From Candidatus Omnitrophota bacterium (GTDB lineage Bacteria; Omnitrophota; Omnitrophia; Omnitrophales; Aquincolibacteriaceae), in contig JAKLIQ010000001.1 of assembly GCA_022709525.1 (NCBI GenBank), positions 210,679 to 274,678 of the forward strand: a stretch of 64,000 nucleotides of DNA. Direction: 5' to 3'. Below are positions 22-58,046 of this stretch, one piece after another (within the stretch, counting starts at the first letter, position 1; each line of letters starts with the position of its first letter). The position numbers and the translations under genes are program-made. Under the pieces are notes generated by a model, which saw only the letters and a list, made by a program, of their open reading frames with translations, was not told where the DNA came from and ran no database searches.

Positions 22-936
22 ATGCCGATTTACCCCTTTACTATGGCGTATTTTATGATCAAGAGGGGGTTATTTGACGTTGAAGAACTCGCCCAGGCAG
101 CACACCGAGACAAACTCATGGCAATCGGAGTTTTAGCGGCCAGCATCAATCATGAGATCCGGAGCCCGCTTTTCCTGATCAAAGGGTCGGCCGAGAATTG
201 TCTGGAGAAACAAAAAGAAGGCCTTTTGTCCGAACCGTCGGAAGTGATCCAAAAGGGAAATGAAGCGCTTCAGAAAAATATCGAACAAGCCAACCGGGCG
301 CTCGATATCATCAAACGTCTTTCATCTTTCGCCAAGGCTGGGGTTGAGAGCAAGTTGAAAATAGAACCGGTTTCGGTGGCGGAAGTTATTGAGAATGTTC
401 TTCCGCTCGTCCGTCATGAGCTTACGGTTAATCAGATCTGTTTTCACAAAGAGATGCCGGAAAATACCCCTAAAGTTTTGGCCGATGCGCTATGCCTTGA
501 AGAAATCTTTTTTAATCTTATCGTGAATGCCTGCCAGGCTTTGAAAGAAAAACCGGATAACCGTGAGATCAGGATCGCGGCCAAAACGGGGGATTCGGGA
601 CTAGGGACTAGCCCCTCGTTTTTTTCAGACCTGCGAATCCTCCGCCAAAGGACGGATCCGTCCAGCGAATTGTGGCGGACGGGTCCCAGCCTGTCCGGCA
701 GGCAGGCCAAGGAACGAGTCCCGGTCATTGTCACCATCCAGGACAACGGTCCCGGTATTCCGGAAGACAAGATCGACGAGGTATTCCGTCCTTTCTATAC
801 CACCAAAGCCGAAGGCACCGGTCTCGGTCTTTATGTAGTCAAACAGCTGATCGAAAAAAACCGCGGTCACATCGAAGTCCAGTCGGTGCTCAATATTGGC
901 ACAAAATTCATTTTATCTATGTTAGGAGTTTCTTGA
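22..936 (+). CDS. Sensor histidine kinase, C-terminal part (HisKA H-box 'INHEIRSPL' plus HATPase_c); 5' end lies outside the window
   Basis: ORF track; H-box, N-box 'NLIVNACQA', G1 'DNGPGIP', G2 'GTGLGLY'. Carries an in-frame REP-like insert at 596-723. Confidence 0.8.
   Translation: MPIYPFTMAYFMIKRGLFDVEELAQAAHRDKLMAIGVLAASINHEIRSPLFLIKGSAENCLEKQKEGLLSEPSEVIQKGNEALQKNIEQANRALDIIKRLSSFAKAGVESKLKIEPVSVAEVIENVLPLVRHELTVNQICFHKEMPENTPKVLADALCLEEIFFNLIVNACQALKEKPDNREIRIAAKTGDSGLGTSPSFFSDLRILRQRTDPSSELWRTGPSLSGRQAKERVPVIVTIQDNGPGIPEDKIDEVFRPFYTTKAEGTGLGLYVVKQLIEKNRGHIEVQSVLNIGTKFILSMLGVS
596..723. repeat. REP/MITE-like palindromic element (CGGGACTAGGGACTAG ... GAGTCCCG) inside the HK1 coding frame
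   Basis: Terminal inverted repeats CGGGACT/AGTCCCG. 5' and 3' ends nearly identical to the copy at 2083-2171. Same GGGACT family as the intergenic copies. Confidence 0.6.
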
Positions 937-941
937 TAATC

Positions 942-2396
942 ATGAATTATTACGCATTCACCAGCTTATTCAACGGAGCGGTTGTACTCGCGATAAGTTT
1001 TTATCTTTTTTTTCGCCAACGACAAAACGATCTTTATCAAAGTTGCGCCATTTTTGCGATGTGCATCGGTCTGTGGTGCATTTTTTATGCTGTTTGGCAG
1101 ATGCAACATTCTTACCACGAAGCATTGACGTATATACGTCTGGCCATGATTCCATGTTACGCGATCCCTTTTGCTTTCTTGTGGTTTGCATTAAAACTAA
1201 CAAATACTTCCTATCATTCTTGGCAACCAGCCGCACTTCTTGCCATTCTTTTATTTTTTATGTTTTTTAGTTTTAATCCTCTGATGATAAGAAGTGTGGA
1301 ACCTGTAACTGGTTTTAATTTTTGGCCTCGTCCTGGAGTTTTAATGAATTTGTATGTTTCGCTTTTTTTTCTAATAATTTTATTGGGTTATTGGTTTTTA
1401 TGGCAAGCATATCGCAACGCTCGCGATACGCGACGTTGGCAGATTCGATGGGTGATGTTGTCATTACTGCCGGGCTGGTTGGGGGGAGCAACTAACTGGT
1501 GTCTTTGGTATGGTATTCCGGTCCCGCCGGTGGCACATATTTTCGTTGGCGTTGGATTTTTGTTGCTCTTCTACGCAATCGTGCGGGGTCGGTTATTCGA
1601 TGTAGATGTTTTGGCCGATCTTGTGCAAGAAGCAAAGCTTTCAGCGCTTGGGATCATGGCAACAAGTATCAATCATGAAGTGCGGAATCCCTTATTTGTG
1701 ATCAAAGGTCTTGCGGAAACGCTTTTAGAACGGGATGATGCGGATAGAGCGAAGGTCAAAGACATCGCTCAAAGGACCCTTGCGCAGGCCGATCGCGCGC
1801 TTGAGATCATTAAAAATTTTTCCGAGTACGCCAAACGGCAAAGCTCTAAAACATTTGATAAAGCGCCGCTTGATCTTAGAGAAATTCTGGAGGGCATTGT
1901 TCCATTTGTTCGCAGTGAACTGGCGCTGGATAAGATCACGCTAATTCTAACTATCCCGACGGGAACGACCATACAAGCCGATCGTCACTCAGTTGAAGAA
2001 ATCTTTCTAAACCTTATCGTCAATGCCTGCCAGGCTATGCCTGGTGGCGGGGAGATTAAAATCACAGCCAAAACAGGAGACCCGGGACTAGGGACTAGCC
2101 CCTCGTTTTTTTCAAAGCCACGAGCCACGAGTCCCTGCCTGTCCGGCAGGCAGGCCGACGAACGAGTCCCGGTTATTGTTACCATCCAGGACAACGGCCC
2201 TGGGATACCAGCCGAACAGCTGACCCACATTTTTGAGCCGTTTTATACCACCAAGTCCTCCGGGACCGGCCTGGGGCTTTATGTAGTCAGGCAACTCATC
2301 GAAAAAAACCGAGGCCGCATCGAAGCCCAATCAACGCAAGGCGTTGGCGCGACCTTTACGATTTACTTCTCCCGAGGGGCGACAAAACAGTTATAA
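942..2396 (+). CDS. Membrane sensor histidine kinase (multi-TM N-terminus plus HisKA plus HATPase_c); tandem paralog of the upstream partial kinase
   Basis: ATG 942 with AGGAG 13 nt upstream. H-box 'INHEVRNPL'; 'DNGPGIP', 'GTGLGLY'. The ORF-track extension back to 672 overlaps HK1 and is not coding. Confidence 0.85.
   Translation: MNYYAFTSLFNGAVVLAISFYLFFRQRQNDLYQSCAIFAMCIGLWCIFYAVWQMQHSYHEALTYIRLAMIPCYAIPFAFLWFALKLTNTSYHSWQPAALLAILLFFMFFSFNPLMIRSVEPVTGFNFWPRPGVLMNLYVSLFFLIILLGYWFLWQAYRNARDTRRWQIRWVMLSLLPGWLGGATNWCLWYGIPVPPVAHIFVGVGFLLLFYAIVRGRLFDVDVLADLVQEAKLSALGIMATSINHEVRNPLFVIKGLAETLLERDDADRAKVKDIAQRTLAQADRALEIIKNFSEYAKRQSSKTFDKAPLDLREILEGIVPFVRSELALDKITLILTIPTGTTIQADRHSVEEIFLNLIVNACQAMPGGGEIKITAKTGDPGLGTSPSFFSKPRATSPCLSGRQADERVPVIVTIQDNGPGIPAEQLTHIFEPFYTTKSSGTGLGLYVVRQLIEKNRGRIEAQSTQGVGATFTIYFSRGATKQL
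2083..2171. repeat. REP/MITE-like palindromic element inserted in-frame in the HK2 HATPase domain
   Basis: 'cgggactagggactagcccctcgtttttttca ... cctgtccggcaggcaggcc..gaacgagtcccg'. 89 nt, frame preserved, G1/G2 boxes intact downstream. Confidence 0.6.
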
Positions 2397-3955: not shown

Positions 3956-4614
3956 TAAAAGCCGCCTTTTTCGATATTGATGGCACATTAATTTCTTGTC
4001 AAAGCCAGCAAGAATTATCTAAATTTATGTTCAAAAAGCGAGCCCTTTCTTTTGCTAGTATGTTAAAACTTTTTTTTTGGTTTACAGGTTATAAGCTAGG
4101 AATTTTTAGAAAAACCGTTAGCATTCGAAAAAAAATGTATCGCATACTTTCTTTAAAAAATAAAAACCAAATTGATTTATTCATCAAAGAAACGTATGAA
4201 AAAAATATATATCCTCAGAGAAATCAAATTTTCAAATCAATCATACAAGGACTCAAAAAAAGAAAATATATAGTTGTTGGCATATCCGGCACGCTTCAGC
4301 AATTTTGCGATTTTATAAAAGTAGAATTTGATATGGATTACGCCTTTGGAACTAAACTTTGTGAAGAAAAGGAGCGATATAGCGGTCGTTGGATAGGCAA
4401 AATACTAGAGGGTGAAGATAAAGCAGAATTTATTCAAAAATTTTCTAAAACAAATAATGTAGATTTAAACAATAGTATATTTTATGGTGATAGCAGTTCT
4501 GATATTCCGTCGATGAAGTTGGTTGGAAAAGCGATTGCCGTGGCCCCAGATATCAAATTAGAGCGATTAGCTAAGAAGAAAGGTTGGGACATTATTGATG
4601 CAGGAAGTTTTTAA
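3952..4614 (+). CDS. HAD-superfamily subfamily IB hydrolase (phosphoserine-phosphatase-like)
   Basis: Motif I 'FFDIDGTLIS', motif IV 'GDSSSD'. ATGA overlap with the PlsC stop. Confidence 0.75.
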   Translation: MIKAAFFDIDGTLISCQSQQELSKFMFKKRALSFASMLKLFFWFTGYKLGIFRKTVSIRKKMYRILSLKNKNQIDLFIKETYEKNIYPQRNQIFKSIIQGLKKRKYIVVGISGTLQQFCDFIKVEFDMDYAFGTKLCEEKERYSGRWIGKILEGEDKAEFIQKFSKTNNVDLNNSIFYGDSSSDIPSMKLVGKAIAVAPDIKLERLAKKKGWDIIDAGSF

Positions 4615-6925
4615 AGATCAATACATGCTGGCATCTAGCTTTACGGCAGCGTCAACCTTTTTGTTAGCGGCTTTGGTTTTTTGGAAGAATTATAAGCGGC
4701 GATTGAACCTGCTTTACTTTTTTTGGGCTTTTTCAGTAGGATTTTGGAGTTTGGCACTTGTTTTTAACATTTTTTCATCAAATTTTACATCAGCGATTTT
4801 TTGGTCAAAAATTTTACATTTTTGGGCAATTCTTCTTCCTCCTATTTATGTTCATTTTGTCCTTCTTTTTTTACAAAAGGAAAATAAGTTCAAACGCTTA
4901 ATTATAGGCATATATCTACTTTCCTTCGTAACAATTCTTTTAGATTTTTCACCTTGGTTTTTGACATCAACTTATCGAGAAAAATTCCATTTTTTTGTTA
5001 CCAAGCCTTTAGCGCTTTATCCATTACATATTGTTTTATTTGTATTCTGCATTTTGTTTGCAATTTTCCAACTCTTTCTAAGTTTTAGAGAAAGTAAGGG
5101 AAAATATAAACAGCAGGTATGGTTCTTTTTTTTAGCAACGTTAATTGGTTATTCAGGGGGAATCACGAATTTTTTAATTAATTATGATTTTTTGATTTAT
5201 CCTCTTTATCCTTTTGGAAACTATACAATTTGTGCATATGTCGTTGTAATAGGTCTCGGTATTTTAAAATATCAGCTAATGGATATTTATGTAATCATTA
5301 GAAAAACTTTGGTTTTTGCAGGATTGTTTGGTCTTTTACTGTTGGTGGTGGGAACAATCACGGCGTTGACACAAAGTTATATCGGGCAACTTGTTGGAAT
5401 CGGAGCAACGACGAGGCAGATCTTAAGCATTTTGATTGCGATGGTGCTGTTTGATCCAGTCCGAAAATTTCTTACAAACGTTACTGATAAATTTCTTTTT
5501 CAGAAAAAATATGATTATCACAAGCTGCTGAAGGATGCGTCGCGGGGGATGTCGAATATCGAGTCGCTCGAGCGCTTGCTAGGACTCGTGGTGCACTTTG
5601 TGACGATGAAAATGCGCATCAAGAACGCCGCGGTACTGATGCGGGAGGGGGCAAGCGATCAATATAACCTTGTTTACCAGCGCGGATTCGACAAGAAATT
5701 CCTCACGCTTACCCTCTATCAAAACGATCCTCTGATCCACTATCTCGAGACGCACAAAGAAGCGGTGGATATCGAGCGCATCAAAGAACAGATCGAAACG
5801 GCTTCTTCCCGCCGTCACGGCAAAATCGCCGAAGATTATGATTACGAGGCGATCCGGGAACGGATGGACCAGCTTCAGGCAGCCTGCTGCGTGCCGAGTT
5901 TTCTGGGGCGCGAACTGCGGAACATCCTCCTCATGGGCGAGAAAAAATCCGGCGAATACTATTCCAATGAAGACCTGAACCTCCTTTATACGCTGGCCCA
6001 GGAATCCTCCATCGCGATCGAGAACGCCCGGCTCTACGATGAGGCGATCAAAAAATCCAGAGAGCTCGAGCATATCAACGACCAGCTCGAACATTCCAAG
6101 ACGCTTCTCATGAAGGCCCTTCAGGAGGCCGAAGGGGCCAATAAACAGCTTCAGGATACCCAGGCCCAGCTGATCCACGAACAAAAGATGGCGACGCTTG
6201 GCCGGCTGGCGGCCTCGGTCGGTCACGAGGTCAATAACCCCCTTACCATCCTTTCCATGAACGTTTCGCGCGTGATCCTGAAACACCGCAAGCATCCGGA
6301 CATGAAGGTGACGGAGATCATCGATGTGTTCGATAAGATGGAAAAAAATATCGAGCGCATCAAGGCGGTTGTGAACACGCTGACCGGCCTTCTTAAAAAA
6401 TCAGAGAAGGGAAAATTCGAAGCGCTATCGCTTAAGCTGATCCTGGAGGAAACCCTGCCGCTCGTGCAGTTCCAGACTTATCTTGATAATCTTTCCGGAA
6501 CGGAGGTCGATTTCAACGTGCCGGGCAACGTTCCCCTCATCCGCGGTGATCTCGAGCGCCTGCAGGAGGTTTTCCTTAATCTTTTTATTAACGCCTTCCA
6601 CGCCATGGCGGGGAAGCGGCACCGGAGGATCGAAGTCCATGCCGAGATGGACCCGCAGGACCCGAATATGGTCGCCGTCCATTTCAAGGATAACGGCTCC
6701 GGCATGACCGAGGATGTCATGAAAAAGGTCTTCAATTACGGGTTTACGACCAAGGCGCCGGGAAAAGGCTCCGGTCTCGGGCTTTACATGTGCAAATATA
6801 TCGTCGAACTCCACGGCGGCACGATCCGGGTCCAAAGCAAGCTCGGGGAGGGAACGACCTTCACGCTGACTTTGCCGATCTATTCCGAAACCTCGACTGT
6901 AAAAACTGTTTCGTCTTCGTCTTAA
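4598..6925 (+). CDS. Large membrane sensor histidine kinase (multi-TM sensor, GAF-like/coiled-coil linker, HisKA, HATPase_c)
   Basis: 'LAASVGHEVNNPL' H-box; 'GSGLGLYMCKYIVELHGG'. 5' third strongly AT-rich, 3' two-thirds GC-rich. Confidence 0.85.
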   Translation: MQEVFKDQYMLASSFTAASTFLLAALVFWKNYKRRLNLLYFFWAFSVGFWSLALVFNIFSSNFTSAIFWSKILHFWAILLPPIYVHFVLLFLQKENKFKRLIIGIYLLSFVTILLDFSPWFLTSTYREKFHFFVTKPLALYPLHIVLFVFCILFAIFQLFLSFRESKGKYKQQVWFFFLATLIGYSGGITNFLINYDFLIYPLYPFGNYTICAYVVVIGLGILKYQLMDIYVIIRKTLVFAGLFGLLLLVVGTITALTQSYIGQLVGIGATTRQILSILIAMVLFDPVRKFLTNVTDKFLFQKKYDYHKLLKDASRGMSNIESLERLLGLVVHFVTMKMRIKNAAVLMREGASDQYNLVYQRGFDKKFLTLTLYQNDPLIHYLETHKEAVDIERIKEQIETASSRRHGKIAEDYDYEAIRERMDQLQAACCVPSFLGRELRNILLMGEKKSGEYYSNEDLNLLYTLAQESSIAIENARLYDEAIKKSRELEHINDQLEHSKTLLMKALQEAEGANKQLQDTQAQLIHEQKMATLGRLAASVGHEVNNPLTILSMNVSRVILKHRKHPDMKVTEIIDVFDKMEKNIERIKAVVNTLTGLLKKSEKGKFEALSLKLILEETLPLVQFQTYLDNLSGTEVDFNVPGNVPLIRGDLERLQEVFLNLFINAFHAMAGKRHRRIEVHAEMDPQDPNMVAVHFKDNGSGMTEDVMKKVFNYGFTTKAPGKGSGLGLYMCKYIVELHGGTIRVQSKLGEGTTFTLTLPIYSETSTVKTVSSSS

Positions 6926-6950: not shown

Positions 6951-7026
6951 GGGACTCGGGACTAGTTCCTCGGGACTCGATAAAACGAGGGACAAAACGA
7001 GTCCCTAGTCCCGAGGGACGAGTCCC
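6951..7026. repeat. Intergenic REP-like palindromic element (GGGACTCGGGACTAG ... GAGTCCC) followed by a T-run
   Basis: Inverted arms plus TTTT at 7027-7030. Sits between the HK stop and the RR start and probably acts as a terminator. Confidence 0.6.
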
Positions 7027-7036
7027 TTTTAAAATT

Positions 7037-7393
7037 ATGAAAAAAATCCTTATTGTCGATGACGAGGTGGGGATCATTCAGGAGGTCAAGGAATTCCTGG
7101 AAGAGGAAGGTTACGAGGTCCACACCGCGGACACAGCCAAGGCGGGGATGAAGCTGATCGAGGAGGTCCGTCCGGATGTGATCCTGATCGATATCAAGCT
7201 TCCCGACGCTTCCGGCAACGAGGTGCTCCGGTTCTGCAAAGAAAGATCCCCGAAGACCAAAACCGTGATCGTGACAGGCTATGTGGACCAGCACGTGATG
7301 GATGAGGCGGAGCAGCTCGGCCGCGACGCATTCCTTCAAAAGCCTTTCAATCTCGAAAAGATCATCAACGAAATCCAACGCCTGACGGCGTAA
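7037..7393 (+). CDS. Single-domain CheY-like response regulator
   Basis: 'KILIVDDE...ILIDIKLPDASG...KPF'. Confidence 0.85.
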   Translation: MKKILIVDDEVGIIQEVKEFLEEEGYEVHTADTAKAGMKLIEEVRPDVILIDIKLPDASGNEVLRFCKERSPKTKTVIVTGYVDQHVMDEAEQLGRDAFLQKPFNLEKIINEIQRLTA

Positions 7394-7398
7394 ACAGC

Positions 7399-7468
7399 CG
7401 GGACTCGGGACTAGGGACTCGTTCTCTTTCTTTGTTTTTCGAGTCCCGAGGAGCGAGGGGCGAGTCCC
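7399..7468. repeat. Intergenic REP-like palindromic element (CGGGACTCGGGACTAGGGACTC ... GAGTCCC plus TTTT)
   Basis: Same family; terminator-like. Confidence 0.6.
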
Positions 7469-7483
7469 TTTTAGAGGTTTCAT

Positions 7484-8029
7484 ATGAACTTTATCAAAAC
7501 CGAGATCGACGGCGTGATCGCGATCGAACCGAAAATTTTTAACGATCCGCGCGGTTTTTTCTACGAAAGCTACCGCAAGAAGCTTTTTGCCGAGCACGGC
7601 ATCAAAGATGATTTCGTCCAGGACAATATCAGCTCCTCCGCCAGGGGAGTGCTTCGCGGGCTTCATTACCAGATCGCGCCCCGCGCGCAGGCTAAGCTCA
7701 TGCGGGTGCTCCGCGGCTCCGTTTACGACGTGGTCGTGGATATCCGTCCGCGGTCCGGAACCTTCGGCAAATTCGTCGCCATGACGCTTTCGGCCGAAAA
7801 CAAAAAAATGCTCTATGTGCCCAAGGGATTCGCGCACGGTTTTTGCGTCCTGGAGGACGGCACGGAATTCCTTTATAAGGTCTCGGATTACTATTCCCCG
7901 GAACATGAGCGGGGGATCCTCTGGAACGATCCCGCGCTGGCCATTCCCTGGCCTAAGCTCGACCACCCGTTCATCCTTTCGGAAAAAGATAAAAAATATC
8001 CCACCTTGCAATCAGCCAAAGCTGATTGA
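7484..8029 (+). CDS. rmlC: dTDP-4-dehydrorhamnose 3,5-epimerase
   Basis: RmlC cupin motifs 'RGFFYESY', 'LRGLHYQ', 'KLMRVLRGSVYDVVVDIR'. Confidence 0.85.
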   Translation: MNFIKTEIDGVIAIEPKIFNDPRGFFYESYRKKLFAEHGIKDDFVQDNISSSARGVLRGLHYQIAPRAQAKLMRVLRGSVYDVVVDIRPRSGTFGKFVAMTLSAENKKMLYVPKGFAHGFCVLEDGTEFLYKVSDYYSPEHERGILWNDPALAIPWPKLDHPFILSEKDKKYPTLQSAKAD

Positions 8030-8135
8030 GACTACAGCCGCAACAGAATTCAATTTCGTAAGTCGAATGGGCCGCAGGTTAATCATGCTTTTAAATAAAA
8101 TTTAAATTGATTTTATATTAATAATAGATTATTCT

Positions 8136-8217
8136 TCCGGCATGAAAAACGAGCATGTGCCGGTTGCAAAAATACATACTTTTATGTATACTCTAAATGC
8201 ATACTTTAAGCATTTAG
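8136..8217 (+). promoter_or_regulatory. Candidate operator region for the TA operon: hairpin ccggcatg..catgtgccgg plus two palindromes ATACATA-cttt-TATGTAT and TAAATGC-atactttaa-GCATTTA
   Basis: Read directly; lies immediately upstream of the RHH antitoxin start. Confidence 0.35.
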
Positions 8218-8228
8218 GGGAGAACATT

Positions 8229-8474
8229 ATGGAACACTTGAGTATTACTTTTCCGGAGACTTTGAAAGCCGCGCTTGATCTGGAAGCCAAGCGGGAGGGA
8301 ACGAAAAGGAGCACGCTTATTCAAAAGGCGGTGCTTATTTATTTGAAATTAAAAAAACAAAAAACCACACAGGATCTTCTCAAAGAAGGGTATCTGGAAA
8401 TGGCCGGCGAATCCGAGCGGCTTTTAAACGAATTCAAAGATCTTGATGCGGAGTCCTTCGGCTATGCCGATTAA
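8229..8474 (+). CDS. Ribbon-helix-helix (CopG/MazE-like) antitoxin
   Basis: 'MEHLSITFPETLKAALDLEAKREGTKRSTLIQKAV'. GGGGAG RBS. Overlaps the toxin start. Confidence 0.6.
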   Translation: MEHLSITFPETLKAALDLEAKREGTKRSTLIQKAVLIYLKLKKQKTTQDLLKEGYLEMAGESERLLNEFKDLDAESFGYAD

Positions 8475-8808
8475 ACGGGGGGACCTTTTTTGGGTCGACC
8501 TTGCCTCGACGCGGGGTTCGGAACAGGCGGGCCGGAGACCTGTACTGGTTATTCAAAATGATATTGGCAATGAATTTGCCCCGACGGTCATTGTGGCCCC
8601 CTTGACAACCAAAAGTTTTTCAAAAGACTATCCCACCAATGTTCATGTCCCGAAGTCGATTGGCGGACTAAAATCTGATTCCACGGTCCTTTTATCACAG
8701 ATCCGCACTCTGGATAAAAAACGTCTTGAAAAAAAGATCAGCCATCTTTCCGATACGTATCTTGAAAAGGTCAATCAGGCCATCAAAGTAAGTTTGGGGT
8801 TGGTCTGA
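8464..8808 (+). CDS. mazF: MazF/PemK-family mRNA interferase toxin
   Basis: 'RGDLFWVDL...GSEQAGRRPVLVIQND...PTVIVAPLTT'. Confidence 0.8.
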   Translation: MPIKRGDLFWVDLASTRGSEQAGRRPVLVIQNDIGNEFAPTVIVAPLTTKSFSKDYPTNVHVPKSIGGLKSDSTVLLSQIRTLDKKRLEKKISHLSDTYLEKVNQAIKVSLGLV

Positions 8809-8812
8809 CAGG

Positions 8813-9043
8813 ATGATGAAATTCTCAGTTACCGTCAAAACCCAGGCCAGGGAAAATCGCGTTGAAGAAGTAAGCCCGGGCGGATTGCGCGTTTGGGTCA
8901 AAGCGCCGCCGCGGGAAGGCCGCGCCAACGAAGCGGTGGTCGAAACGCTGGCGGCTTATTTTAAGGTCCCCAAAAGCCGGGTGGCCATTGTCGGCGGTTT
9001 TAAAAGTAAGACAAAAATTGTAGCAATCGGGACTCGGGACTAG
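8813..9043 (+). CDS. DUF167/YggU-family small protein
   Basis: 'VKAPPREGRANEAVVETLAAYFKVPKSRVAIVGG'. Last codons and the TAG stop lie inside a REP element. Confidence 0.7.
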   Translation: MMKFSVTVKTQARENRVEEVSPGGLRVWVKAPPREGRANEAVVETLAAYFKVPKSRVAIVGGFKSKTKIVAIGTRD

Positions 9044-9170
9044 TTCCTCGCCTGGTTCTCATGAATTTTTGACAGAAACCAGTGCAGTACCTGATAATCT
9101 TTTAAATTTTAAAGAAATCAAGCACGGGACTCAATAGAACGAGCCCCGAGTCCCCAGGGGCGAGTCCCCC
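9028..9170. repeat. Composite REP-like element: left arm 9028-9053 (CGGGACTCGGGACTAG...), AT-rich 70-nt spacer, right arm 9124-9170 (...GAGTCCCCAGGGGCGAGTCCCCC)
   Basis: Same GGGACT family; the arms form an inverted repeat. Confidence 0.5.
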
Positions 9171-41791: not shown

Positions 41792-41819
41792 TCAGAGGTC
41801 AGCCGTCAGCTGTCAATTT

Positions 41820-42185
41820 ATGCAGAAACAGAAATTCAGAAATTTTAAAGTTTGGCAGCGGGCTATGGATTTGGTGGAAAAAATCTACCGCCTCACTGAA
41901 CATTTTCCTTCGTCCGAAAAATTTGGACTGACAAGTCAATTGCGTCGTTCAGCAAGTTCAATCGCATTGAATATTGCCGAGGGAAGCGCTTCAAGCTCTC
42001 CAAGCGAATTTGGAAGGTTCTTGGAGATTTCTCTAAGATCCAATTATGAATTGGTCTGCGGTATTGAAATCGCCAAAAGGCTAGGTTATTGTCGATGTTT
42101 AGAAAAAGACAGTTTACTGGCAGAACTGGATGAAATCGCCGCCATGCTGTCTGGTTTTAAAAAGAAACTAAAAACCGATCACTGA
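41820..42185 (+). CDS. Four-helix-bundle protein of the 23S-rRNA-intervening-sequence (IVS) family, lying between panC and panD
   Basis: 'FKVWQRAMDLVEKIYRLTEHFPSSEKFGLTSQLRRSASSIALNIAEGS'. Confidence 0.75.
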   Translation: MQKQKFRNFKVWQRAMDLVEKIYRLTEHFPSSEKFGLTSQLRRSASSIALNIAEGSASSSPSEFGRFLEISLRSNYELVCGIEIAKRLGYCRCLEKDSLLAELDEIAAMLSGFKKKLKTDH

Positions 42186-42210
42186 TCACTGAAAACTGAA
42201 AGCTGAGTGT

Positions 42211-48018: not shown

Positions 48019-48354
48019 ATGAAAGCCGATCAATTAAAAATTTCTGAGTCCACGAACAATTATTTCCGGTGTCTTGCGAAGGCGATGGACAGGACCCGCC
48101 AGTTGCTCTGCAGAAAAGATCTAACGCCAAGCCATAAAGGGATCCATTCCGTGAAATCTATTCTCTATGCCGCGATCGAGCGGGCGGGCATGGAATCGGA
48201 ACGCTTGATCTCCGCGCAGGAGCTTTTACGCGAACTCTTGGCGTTCGTAGCGCTTCAAGCGGACCCCGCGCCCGGCGAACGGGAGGAAGCGCTCAGGATC
48301 CTTAAAAAACTTCAAGCACACCACTTTATGATAAATAACGATGTTTCCAGATGA
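48019..48354 (+). CDS. Hypothetical protein (111 aa)
   Basis: ORF only. Confidence 0.35.
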   Translation: MKADQLKISESTNNYFRCLAKAMDRTRQLLCRKDLTPSHKGIHSVKSILYAAIERAGMESERLISAQELLRELLAFVALQADPAPGEREEALRILKKLQAHHFMINNDVSR

Positions 48355-48376
48355 TTTCAAATTTGAAATCTCAAAT
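48353..48376. repeat. Palindromic motif GATTTCAAATTTGAAATCTCAAAT (core TCAAATTTGA) upstream of the IVS-family gene
   Basis: Perfect palindrome CAAATTTG. Related copies at 48671-48702 and 48885-48908. Confidence 0.5.
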
Positions 48377-48394
48377 AGATTTAGAGAAAAATAA

Positions 48395-48877
48395 ATGAAA
48401 TTCGAGCGTTTTGAAGATCTACCGGTCTGGAAAGACAGCGTTGAACTGGCAACCGCTATTTTTCGAATGACCCGGAGCCATCGATTTCGCGGGCTTGGAG
48501 ATATTTCGAACCAGATACAACGGGCGGGGCTTTCCATATCCAATAATATTGCGGAAGGATTCGAGCGCGGTACGACTCAGGAGCTACTCTCTTTTCTTTA
48601 TTACGCAAGGGGCTCGGCAGGAGAAGTGCGCTCCATCTTATCGGTCATGGAAAATCTCGAAAATCTCCATGATCTCAAATTTGAAATTTCAAATCTGAAA
48701 TCCGCCGCTGAAGCGGTTTCGCGCCAGATCCGAGGTTGGGCGGCGGCGTTACAGAATACACCCATTCGTGGGCAGCGGTATCTTGGCGAACAATCAAAAG
48801 CAGCATTCGATCAAGAAAAAAGCCGCAAAATGTTTAAGGAAACGCTCAAACGATATTATCAACCTCCGGTCTCTTAA
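48395..48877 (+). CDS. Four-helix-bundle protein of the 23S-rRNA-IVS family (second copy)
   Basis: 'ISNQIQRAGLSISNNIAEGFERGT'. Contains an internal copy of the palindrome, encoding 'DLKFEISNLKS'. Confidence 0.75.
   Translation: MKFERFEDLPVWKDSVELATAIFRMTRSHRFRGLGDISNQIQRAGLSISNNIAEGFERGTTQELLSFLYYARGSAGEVRSILSVMENLENLHDLKFEISNLKSAAEAVSRQIRGWAAALQNTPIRGQRYLGEQSKAAFDQEKSRKMFKETLKRYYQPPVS
48671..48702. repeat. Internal copy GATCTCAAATTTGAAATTTCAAATCTGAAATC of the palindromic motif, inside the coding sequence
   Basis: 17/17 identical to the copy at 48885-48901. Confidence 0.5.
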
Positions 48878-56683: not shown

Positions 56684-56762
56684 AGGGCCAGAGACTAGAG
56701 ACCGGAGACTGGAGCAAAAACGCTTTGGGGTTTTGGTCTAGGGTCTGTAGTCTGTGGTCTGG
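56684..56762. repeat. Inverted AGACT/GGTCT-rich repeat pair (ccagagactagagaccggagactggag ... ggtctagggtctgtagtctgtggtctgg) upstream of tRNA-Arg
   Basis: GAGACT hexamer variant of the GGGACT repeat family. Confidence 0.4.
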
Positions 56763-56766
56763 AAAA

Positions 56767-56840
56767 GCCCCCATAGCTCAATTGGATAGAGCATCTCCTT
56801 CCTAAGGAGAGGGTTGCATGTTCGATTCATGCTGGGGGCA
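56767..56840 (+). tRNA. tRNA-Arg (anticodon CCT), followed by a T7 run
   Basis: Hand-folded: GCCCCCA acceptor, TCTCC/GGAGA anticodon stem with loop TTCCTAA, GCATG-TTCGATT-CATGC T-arm. Confidence 0.85.
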
Positions 56841-57990: not shown

Positions 57991-58046
57991 CGGGACTCGG
58001 GACTCGTAAACGAAGAACCAAAACAAGTCCCGAGCTACGAGTCTCT
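57991..58046. repeat. Intergenic REP-like element (CGGGACTCGGGACTCG ... CAAGTCCCGAGCTACGAGTCTC)
   Basis: Same GGGACT family; lies between the MTHFS stop and the xseA start. Confidence 0.55.

Follow-up and report, generated by a model that had tools for sequence, protein, structure and literature searches.

The 64,000-nucleotide (nt) stretch of DNA examined here, referred to as the window, belongs to a Candidatus Omnitrophota genome (GenBank assembly GCA_022709525.1, contig JAKLIQ010000001.1, positions 210,679 to 274,678). It contains a dispersed family of seven hairpin elements, each of which is an imperfect palindrome, 54-140 nt long and composed of 7-nt units. The family is real and represents a form, particular to this lineage, of a repeat class that is known but has no explanation; the closest form described is that of the G-rich heptamer repeat pairs in Xanthomonas and Nostoc. 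The favored explanation, with a probability of roughly 0.55, is that the elements are selfish or neutral insertions of this heptamer class which form an RNA stem-loop resembling that of the repetitive extragenic palindromic (REP) sequences. An earlier reading of the letters alone (the sequence-only reading) had described them as REP-like hairpin terminators, one of which supplies the stop codon of a gene. The claim on the stop codon is correct, and the terminator claim is at best partial.

Census of the Window

With up to two mismatches allowed, the pattern GGGACTMGGGACTAG has 11 matches in the window against 0.15 expected. The chance level was taken from dinucleotide-preserving shuffles, none of which reached 11 (0/100). 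The right-arm pattern CGAGNNNCGAGNNNCGAG, which has a 7-nt periodicity, also has 11 matches (0.71 expected), every one of them within the same seven elements. The hexamer GGGACT on its own has 42 occurrences, compared with 22 expected, and the surplus is clustered at the same places. No further copies were found in the window by looser scans for either arm type. The proposal of a dispersed family with at least seven copies is thus borne out at the places originally given, with limits refined by a few nt (Table 1). Elements of the same type are present in other genomes, and the consensus is conserved well beyond the hexamer.

Five of the seven copies are intergenic. They lie between co-directional genes and start 0-25 nt past the upstream stop codon. 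The gaps are those between the third histidine kinase (HK3) and the response regulator (RR), RR and rmlC, DUF167 and MMPL, a phosphoribosyltransferase and tRNA-Arg, and MTHFS and xseA. It had been stated that the elements are placed exactly between genes; this holds for these five copies and fails for those at 590-722 and 2077-2170, which reside inside the open reading frames (ORFs) of HK1 and HK2. Taken as a whole, the sequence-only reading is partly supported: the family, the stop codon and an insert in one copy stand, a general role in termination does not, and the likeness to REP sequences is a loose one.

Table 1. Positions of the hairpin copies and associated features in the window.
Feature	Positions	Strand	Context	Composition
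HK1 copy	590-722	+	in frame within histidine kinase HK1 (ORF 22-936)	GGGATTC GGGACTA GGGACTA GCCCCTC G ... AAGGAAC GAGTCCC
HK2 copy, left part (positions of the whole copy)	2077-2170	+	in frame within histidine kinase HK2	GAGACCC GGGACTA GGGACTA GCCCCTC G ... GAGCCAC GAGTCCC
HK2 copy, right part (positions of the whole copy)	2077-2170	+	after GAGTCCC of the left part	small palindrome GCCTGTCCGGCAGGC, then GACGAAC GAGTCCC
HK3-RR copy	6951-7026	+	HK3 stop 6925; RR ATG 7037	TTTT follows; most stable hairpin
RR-rmlC copy	7400-7468	+	RR stop 7393; rmlC ATG 7484	TTTT follows
DUF167-MMPL/RND copy, split	9029-9168	+	MMPL/RND ATG 9224	left arm 9029-9050; insert 9051-9125; GGGACTC 9126-9132; right arm to 9168
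Variant copy	56685-56762	+	phosphoribosyltransferase stop 56680; tRNA-Arg(CCT) 56767-56840	GAGACY / RGTCTN units
MTHFS-xseA copy, short	57992-58045	+	MTHFS stop 57986	AAAAAAC on left flank, TTTAAG on right
Nested 39-nt palindrome	641-679	+	within HK1 copy, in frame; length a multiple of 3	TCCGCC..GGACGGATCCGTCC..GGCGGA
DUF167 gene	8813-9043	+	end of gene within the first two units of the element	last four codons GGG ACT CGG GAC, then TAG
Promoter-like site	9069-9098	+	inside insert of the split copy; consensus match only	TTGACA-18 nt-GATAAT
TIGR02436 Avd-like four-helix-bundle gene	41820-42185 (cassette 41792-42206)	+	between panC and panD	
Arms of the panC-panD cassette	41792-41819 (left); 42165-42206 (right)	+		left TCAGAGG TCAGCCG TCAGCTG TCAATTT; inverted right NNACTGA x6
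Second four-helix-bundle gene	ORF 48395-48877 (feature 48353-48705)	+	upstream of glyQ	
Arrays of the second four-helix-bundle gene	48353-48380 (upstream); 48671-48705 (in the 3′ part of the gene)	+		AATTTGA/AATTTCA type

Element Anatomy and Folding

The consensus was derived from 23 end-aligned copies of the window and other Candidatus Omnitrophota genomes. The general plan is GGGACTC-GGGACTA-(GGGACTC)-(GYYCCTC)-G, an A/T-rich loop, and C-(GAGNNNC)n-GAGTCCC. At the left end the units GGGACTC, GGGACTA and GGGACTC follow one another, often with GYYCCTC next, before the G. The seventh base is C in 83% of copies for the first unit, A in 78% for the second and C in 65% for the third. The loop mostly ends in AAC, and the right end reads GAGTCCC GAGGNAC GAGTCCC. 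Rather than complementing the left arm exactly, the right arm is a degenerate array of GAGNNNC units, an asymmetry that is repeated in different genomes. The loops of the seven window copies are 8-75 nt in length and contain no ORF.

When folded as RNA, the copy at 6951-7026 reaches -44.9 kcal/mol (z -6.1 against shuffles). The variant at 56685-56762 follows with -40.2 kcal/mol (z -5.4), its stem making use of G-U pairs. Four other copies fold at z -2 to -3, with 57992-58045 at z -2.1. The variant is much more stable on the + strand than on the - strand, where it reaches -23.3 kcal/mol. Strand-specific structure, judged by the G-U pairs, was considered as a general trait and rejected, as this tRNA-proximal variant is the sole copy that favors the sense strand and the others are about equal on both. 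A fixed orientation to transcription was likewise discarded: on the sense strand the canonical arm comes first in each of the seven window copies, yet both orientations occur in Omnitrophota relatives.

No G3N1-7 x4 motif overlaps any window element. The arms consist of 2-3 units with as many G-tracts and hence have no potential to form a G-quadruplex (G4), which ruled out that reading for the window copies. At the gathering score of Rfam 15 only tRNAs match in the window, the best sub-threshold match having E = 0.39. No paper on bacteria was found when the literature was searched for the exact repeat strings.

Copies Inside Coding Genes

In the neighboring kinases HK1 and HK2, the element is inserted in frame between the N box and the DNGPGI G1 box. 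The HK1 element encodes ..GDSGLGTSPSFFS...ERVP.., while HK2, whose ORF is listed from 672, has its stop at 2396. The kinase profile match is broken into two stretches around the element. The spacing between the N box and the G1 box is 32-35 amino acids in most of the 120 kinase homologues compared, many of which carry the name Candidatus Omnitrophota; it is 76 in HK1 and 60 in HK2. In the diverged kinases P0031 and P0049, this loop likewise contains a heptamer hairpin, and its ends are the same. Between kinase genes the element arms are 82-93% identical, compared with 50-77% for the flanking coding DNA. The 39-nt palindrome nested in the HK1 copy is missing from the strain contig L131, which is otherwise 85-93% identical. 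Both kinase copies further contain, nested within them, the small palindrome GCCTGTCCGGCAGGC (692-706 and 2137-2151).

Coding copies are also present in other Omnitrophota genomes. One relative has the element in frame in valS (valine-tRNA ligase), where it encodes GTRDSGLVPRKNESRVP. A further copy resides in a nuclease-like ORF, and one in reverse orientation lies in a giant ORF. The G-strand coding copies all take the sole frame that is free of the TAG of GGGACTAG; DUF167 takes the frame that hits it. A copy that appeared to be inside tsaD in the relative L009 was rejected as a crude ORF call, since the profile match starts the real gene after the element. Such repeats can rewrite proteins, with 25-44 residues added to a kinase catalytic domain, an insertion in valS and a stop codon replaced. 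Gene callers and protein-family alignments in these genomes will include repeat-encoded segments.

The same loop of this kinase family, and the position just past the N box, is occupied by other, unrelated inserts in the homologues P0010, P0018, P0034, P0049 and P0054, one of which encodes ..ARSPAFRGTTRQSQNEIASPSGFAMT...

The DUF167 Stop Codon and the Split Copy

The DUF167 ORF ends in ..KIVAIGTRD*, and its TAG (9041-9043) falls in the second unit of the element, GGGACTAG. The family profile is already complete at residue 72 of 76. Among the 88 DUF167 homologues listed, about 34 have 72 residues, most with ..IG as their end and others with K, N, H or R; a similar number have 76 residues, mostly with ..IGECQC-like ends. 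The gene ends with ATC GGG TAA in the syntenic relative L132. In the relative L133 it ends with ATC GGG ACT CGG GGC TAG, and the stop again falls within the second unit of such an element. Because of the profile limit, the orthologue ends and the readings in L132 and L133, the present stop codon is seen to come from the element, and the ancestral stop was located three codons earlier, where about 34 of the 88 listed homologues end. A comparison with relatives, as suggested in the sequence-only reading, thus shows that a native stop was displaced.

The element that L133 has at this DUF167/MMPL site is of the same type, but it is unsplit and 70 nt long. The 75-nt segment at 9051-9125 of the window is therefore an insert, in agreement with the suggestion that this copy is split by about 70 nt of AT-rich DNA. 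Within it, the TTGACA-18-GATAAT site is the top sigma-70-like match (11/12) of the first 12 kb.

Distribution, Relatives and Strain Variation

One genome per species was scanned with a 22-nt pattern. At least 113 (GGGACTN) loci were found against about 4 expected by chance, a rough estimate for uniform base composition. The matches are spread among Omnitrophota, Acidobacteriota, Gemmatimonadota, Gammaproteobacteria, cyanobacteria, Planctomycetota and others. Many of the listed loci are (GGGACTN)n ... (NAGTCCC)n pairs that lie 10-120 nt apart, and arrays in other phyla reach 15 units. The same element ends are repeated in other Candidatus Omnitrophota genomes, and homologues of the window proteins bear that name. 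A phage origin was rejected, with just 2 matches in 2.9 million viral contigs.

The exact window proteins are also encoded on a 551-kb JGI contig (3300010429, Ga0116241_10000025) and in the NCBI assembly GCA_035454205.1. The genome is present in anaerobic digester samples. The NCBI organism labels of proteins identical to window genes (P0030 and P0121) conflict, since the one for HK1 is assigned to Candidatus Moranbacteria and the one for DUF167 to Candidatus Omnitrophota. Binning or labeling may thus be inconsistent here.

Three intergenic elements, including 6951-7026, are identical in more than 8 metagenome samples. In the RR/rmlC element, the strain contig L125 (98.7% identical) differs by two point changes and an additional GAGTCCC unit. 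In the same contig, a shared GGGACTC connects the DUF167 element's insert with the right half of the HK3/RR element. This contig (Logan SRR15237810, 2160 nt) begins at window-equivalent 9061 and ends at 9058. The junction points to copies that have recombined or been duplicated, be it as a tandem duplication, a circle or an insert shared by the two elements; it may also be an artifact of assembly. L131 (Logan SRR15237811), compared with window positions 22-2396, encodes one kinase in place of HK1 and HK2. Its 5′ part is HK1-like and the DNA downstream is HK2-like, the result of a deletion or duplication that spans the catalytic-domain region shared by both, in which the element lies.

In syntenic relatives, almost every gap of the gene cluster is occupied by an inverted heptamer array of a different unit type. 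The sites are L132 8672-8782, 9320-9433, 9926-10000, 10220-10347 and 12700-12883, together with L133 317-397. The unit types in the gaps are TAGCCNA, GTGTCAC/GTATCAN, GAGCCAC, GGGGAAC and CGCTCAA. In the RR/rmlC gap, three genomes have three unrelated heptamer unit types, each with self-complementary arms.

Comparison with Known Repeat Classes

Heptamer repeats have been known from cyanobacteria since 1990 and were later described in xanthomonads; a function was never assigned. Rehm et al. 2015 (PMC4692102) reported (GGGANTN)n heptamers, with GGGAATC in Xanthomonas and GGGGA(C/T)T, of the cyanobacterial short tandemly repeated repetitive (STRR) type STRR1, in Nostoc. There are 70-75 convergent pairs per Xanthomonas genome; the repeats are mostly transcribed and, on average, 28 nt away from the ORF upstream (PMC4692102). 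The G-rich heptamer repeats form G4 structures in vitro without an assigned function (PMC4692102). Heptamer repeats are known to be over-represented in bacteria.

The window elements share with these pairs at least two tandem 7-nt GGGNNYN units and nearby convergent arrays on opposite strands that form inverted repeats. They also share the intergenic bias, the closeness to the 3′ end of the upstream ORF, the co-directional neighbors, and a unit number that varies among relatives, as in L125. Unlike those of Xanthomonas and Nostoc, the window arms lack four or more G-tracts, the only feature of the class, among those tested, that the copies do not show. The family further differs in its fixed asymmetric ends, kept across Omnitrophota genomes, and in a right arm that is not the exact complement of the left. 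In-frame copies in essential or signaling genes and the donation of a stop codon are not described for the Xanthomonas and Nostoc pairs. This kind of heptamer repeat is also present, with fixed ends, in the uncultured phylum Omnitrophota, and GGGACTN arrays and inverted pairs extend to many phyla.

REP sequences stabilize upstream mRNA and can attenuate transcription, and those within about 15 nt of a stop codon can lower the translation of the upstream gene. The REP sequences of Enterobacteria and Pseudomonas, together with the bacterial interspersed mosaic elements and REPIN doublets that they form, are mobilized by REP-associated tyrosine transposases (RAYTs). The window copies resemble them as short, dispersed, imperfect palindromes between co-directional genes that would form RNA stem-loops. 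They differ in having GGGACTC/GAGTCCC ends without a GTAG/CTAC head, in their length (54-140 nt against 20-40 nt) and in arms made of tandem heptamers. REP sequences are strictly extragenic, whereas in-frame copies of the present family are found in HK1, HK2, valS and other ORFs. The term REP-like thus fits the dispersal and the palindromic form, and does not fit the heptamer arms, the missing GTAG head or the copies inside genes. Of the features of MITEs (miniature inverted-repeat transposable elements), the inverted ends are present in the window copies, but not a target-site duplication or a related insertion sequence.

Rickettsia palindromic elements, about 100 nt in length, enter protein-coding genes in frame and lengthen the protein by a peptide without destroying it. 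They are not known from outside Rickettsia and are not built from heptamers. The likeness to the kinase copies, in-frame insertion with the ORF preserved, is one of behavior. Most window copies are intergenic, unlike the Rickettsia elements, and no sequence relationship is expected.

MacGregor 2015 (PMC4679880) described TAACTGA heptamer direct repeats in Beggiatoaceae, cyanobacteria and Bacteroidetes. The NNACTGA array of the window is similar in being an intergenic heptamer array that stops a few bases before a start codon, that of panD. The TAACTGA repeats are direct and A/T-rich, whereas the present family has inverted G-rich arms, and the NNACTGA array itself serves as right arm in the inverted pair that flanks a four-helix-bundle gene.

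Origin of the Elements

As selfish or neutral insertions, the copies would behave in the manner of REP sequences, MITEs and Rickettsia palindromic elements. They would occupy gaps between co-directional genes and could overwrite a stop codon while supplying a new one, as at DUF167. A copy inside a gene would survive when it falls in the one open frame and in a tolerant surface loop, as may be the case in the two kinases and in valS of the relative. Existing copies change by the gain or loss of single 7-nt units, by the acquisition of nested palindromes or a promoter-like segment, and by recombination between copies. In the transcript, the arms would pair to form a stem-loop at the 3′ end of the upstream cistron. 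The most likely consequence is a REP-like barrier to 3′-5′ decay. A U-run after the stem may produce a leaky terminator, and the stem may also be a site for a double-strand RNase.

Several observations weigh against this explanation. No direct repeat or target-site duplication flanks any of the seven copies, and no RAYT gene or other transposase was found among the fewer than 20 window ORFs screened (64 kb of genome). The copies are not near-identical as would follow a recent burst, the loops being wholly dissimilar in the 23-copy alignment. The three unrelated unit types of the RR/rmlC gap would be explained by turnover in situ, or by selection for the architecture, no less well than by transposition. 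The copy at 7400-7468 folds no better than shuffles (z -1.0). The five kinase-loop copies show no compensatory changes; their pairs are invariant, so covariation is uninformative. The missing duplication and transposase, the dissimilar loops and the three RR/rmlC families speak against transposition, while the fixed asymmetric ends and the presence or absence of whole elements in one protein loop speak against pure slippage.

Avd-like Cassettes with Inverted Heptamer Arms

The most serious rival, though a doubtful one, is that the solo hairpins are cargo-less relatives of inverted-array cassettes that carry an Avd-like gene, as MITEs are to insertion sequences, with the stem a putative RNase III substrate. 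Both four-helix-bundle genes of the window (Table 1) and that of L132 lie between inverted heptamer arrays, which abut the start codon and overlap the stop. The last base of the array upstream of panD is located 4 nt ahead of its start codon. The L132 cassette (7880-8310) fills the HK3/RR gap, the site of the hairpin at 6951-7026 in the window.

The arrangement extends well beyond these genes. Among 70 metagenomic four-helix-bundle genes (TIGR02436 / PF05635), 38 have arrays of at least three units at both ends, and in 34 of the 38 the consensuses are complementary. Arrays at both ends were found for none of 51 other window genes used as controls. The upstream-downstream duplex energy has a mean of -38.7 kcal/mol for the four-helix-bundle genes against -28.8 kcal/mol for their neighbors (p = 2.5e-5). 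The unit sequence of the cassettes varies by locus while the two arms of one locus match (loci L135-L214), and cassette arms of the GAGACN / GGGGACT type occur (L181, L183, L210). The searches run found no literature that links the four-helix-bundle family to heptamer repeats. This statistically strong tie makes the origins of both directly testable.

A precedent may be the 23S rRNA intervening sequence of Coxiella, in which an ORF of this four-helix-bundle family, also named S23p or '23S rRNA intervening sequence protein', is bordered by a 28-bp stem that is cut by RNase III (PMC4990558). The intervening sequences of Coxiella and Leptospira (PMC4990558) share with the window elements a long stem of terminal inverted repeats and, in the cargo-bearing relatives, the same protein family in the loop. 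The GGGACTN copies of the window differ in that they have no PF05635/TIGR02436 ORF, lie outside rRNA and have heptamer arrays as arms.

Against the kinship, no four-helix-bundle gene was found by hidden Markov model (HMM) in the at least 113 GGGACTN loci listed (about 850 kb), and exact GGGACTN arms occur in 0/80 cassettes. A four-helix bundle has no known transposition chemistry, and such genes could simply insert into, or be kept within, pre-existing arrays. Since the gene is missing from the GGGACTN loci, the link between cassettes and hairpins is one of shared architecture and site and not of proven common origin. GGGACTN arm pairs 300-700 nt apart around a small gene were also sought and rejected, as the spacings cluster at 10-120 nt instead and the HMM finds none.

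A broader form of this proposal is speculative. It would join all of these repeats in one widespread element class, whose full-length members carry the Avd-like gene and whose far commoner short members are the solo hairpins and the STRR/G-rich heptamers of many phyla. The arrays would then be the target of the protein, which would serve their mobility, their maintenance or the processing of RNA. If this were true, an orphan protein family and orphan repeats would both gain a function.

Possible Growth of Arrays in Place

Somewhat less probable still is an origin as simple sequence repeats that grew where they stand. In this scheme slippage would make the arrays and intrastrand template switching would invert them; the repeats would be immobile, and any function would be at the DNA level, e.g., as a G4 or i-motif, which has been proposed for Xanthomonas and Nostoc. 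The one-unit length polymorphism between strains, the arrays of up to 15 units in other phyla, and the one gap with three unrelated, self-complementary unit types in three relatives are all consistent with it. So are the missing target-site duplication and transposase, the over-representation of heptamers in bacteria and the folding of G-rich ones to G4 in vitro. Free slippage would, however, be unlike the fixed and asymmetric ends in several Omnitrophota genomes (unit order C-A-C in the left arm; GAGGNAC as the middle unit on the right). It is also at odds with entire two-armed elements that are present or absent in one protein loop and with the identity of three intergenic elements in more than 8 samples. 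The window copies, moreover, have too few G-tracts for a G4.

T-Runs and Termination

The weakest of the rivals is that of host-selected intrinsic (Rho-independent) terminators at gene ends, as the sequence-only reading had it. It had also described a T-run as usual after the right arm. Stable GC-rich stems followed by a clear TTTT are present at 6951-7026 and 7400-7468, the run is weak (TTTAAG) at 57992, and none is found at the other four copies. In the window and Omnitrophota relatives together, a sense-direction T-run follows about 7-8 of 14 intergenic copies. This exceeds a rough chance estimate of 6-10% for an A/T-rich spacer, but it is far from universal. The start of all five intergenic window copies within 25 nt of a stop codon is also in keeping with termination.

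Half of the intergenic copies nonetheless lack a T-run, and the in-frame copies in the kinases and valS are read through. In the relative L039, 2/4 copies (4255-4366 and 6266-6337) have a T-run solely on the strand opposite to the genes. A consensus terminator scan missed the full hairpins, whose loops exceed 8 nt. In 4/5 intergenic window copies, only 4-15 nt separate the hairpin from the next start codon or tRNA. A promoter would not fit into such a space, and the RR gene, rmlC, xseA and tRNA-Arg would therefore fall silent if termination were efficient. With T-runs in about half of the copies, read-through in coding genes and downstream genes 4-15 nt away, a pure terminator role is unlikely, and termination fails as the general role of the elements.

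Neighboring Genes and Other Repeats

Between rmlC and DUF167 (window 8142-8808), the window encodes a MazF toxin (8443-8808) and a small upstream ORF that are not in the relatives. A single unrelated hypothetical gene takes their position in L132 (9434-9925) and L133 (1098-1532). In L133 an intergenic gap (925-1100) is filled by a differently structured palindromic repeat, GTCATTGCGAG...CTCGCAATGAC.

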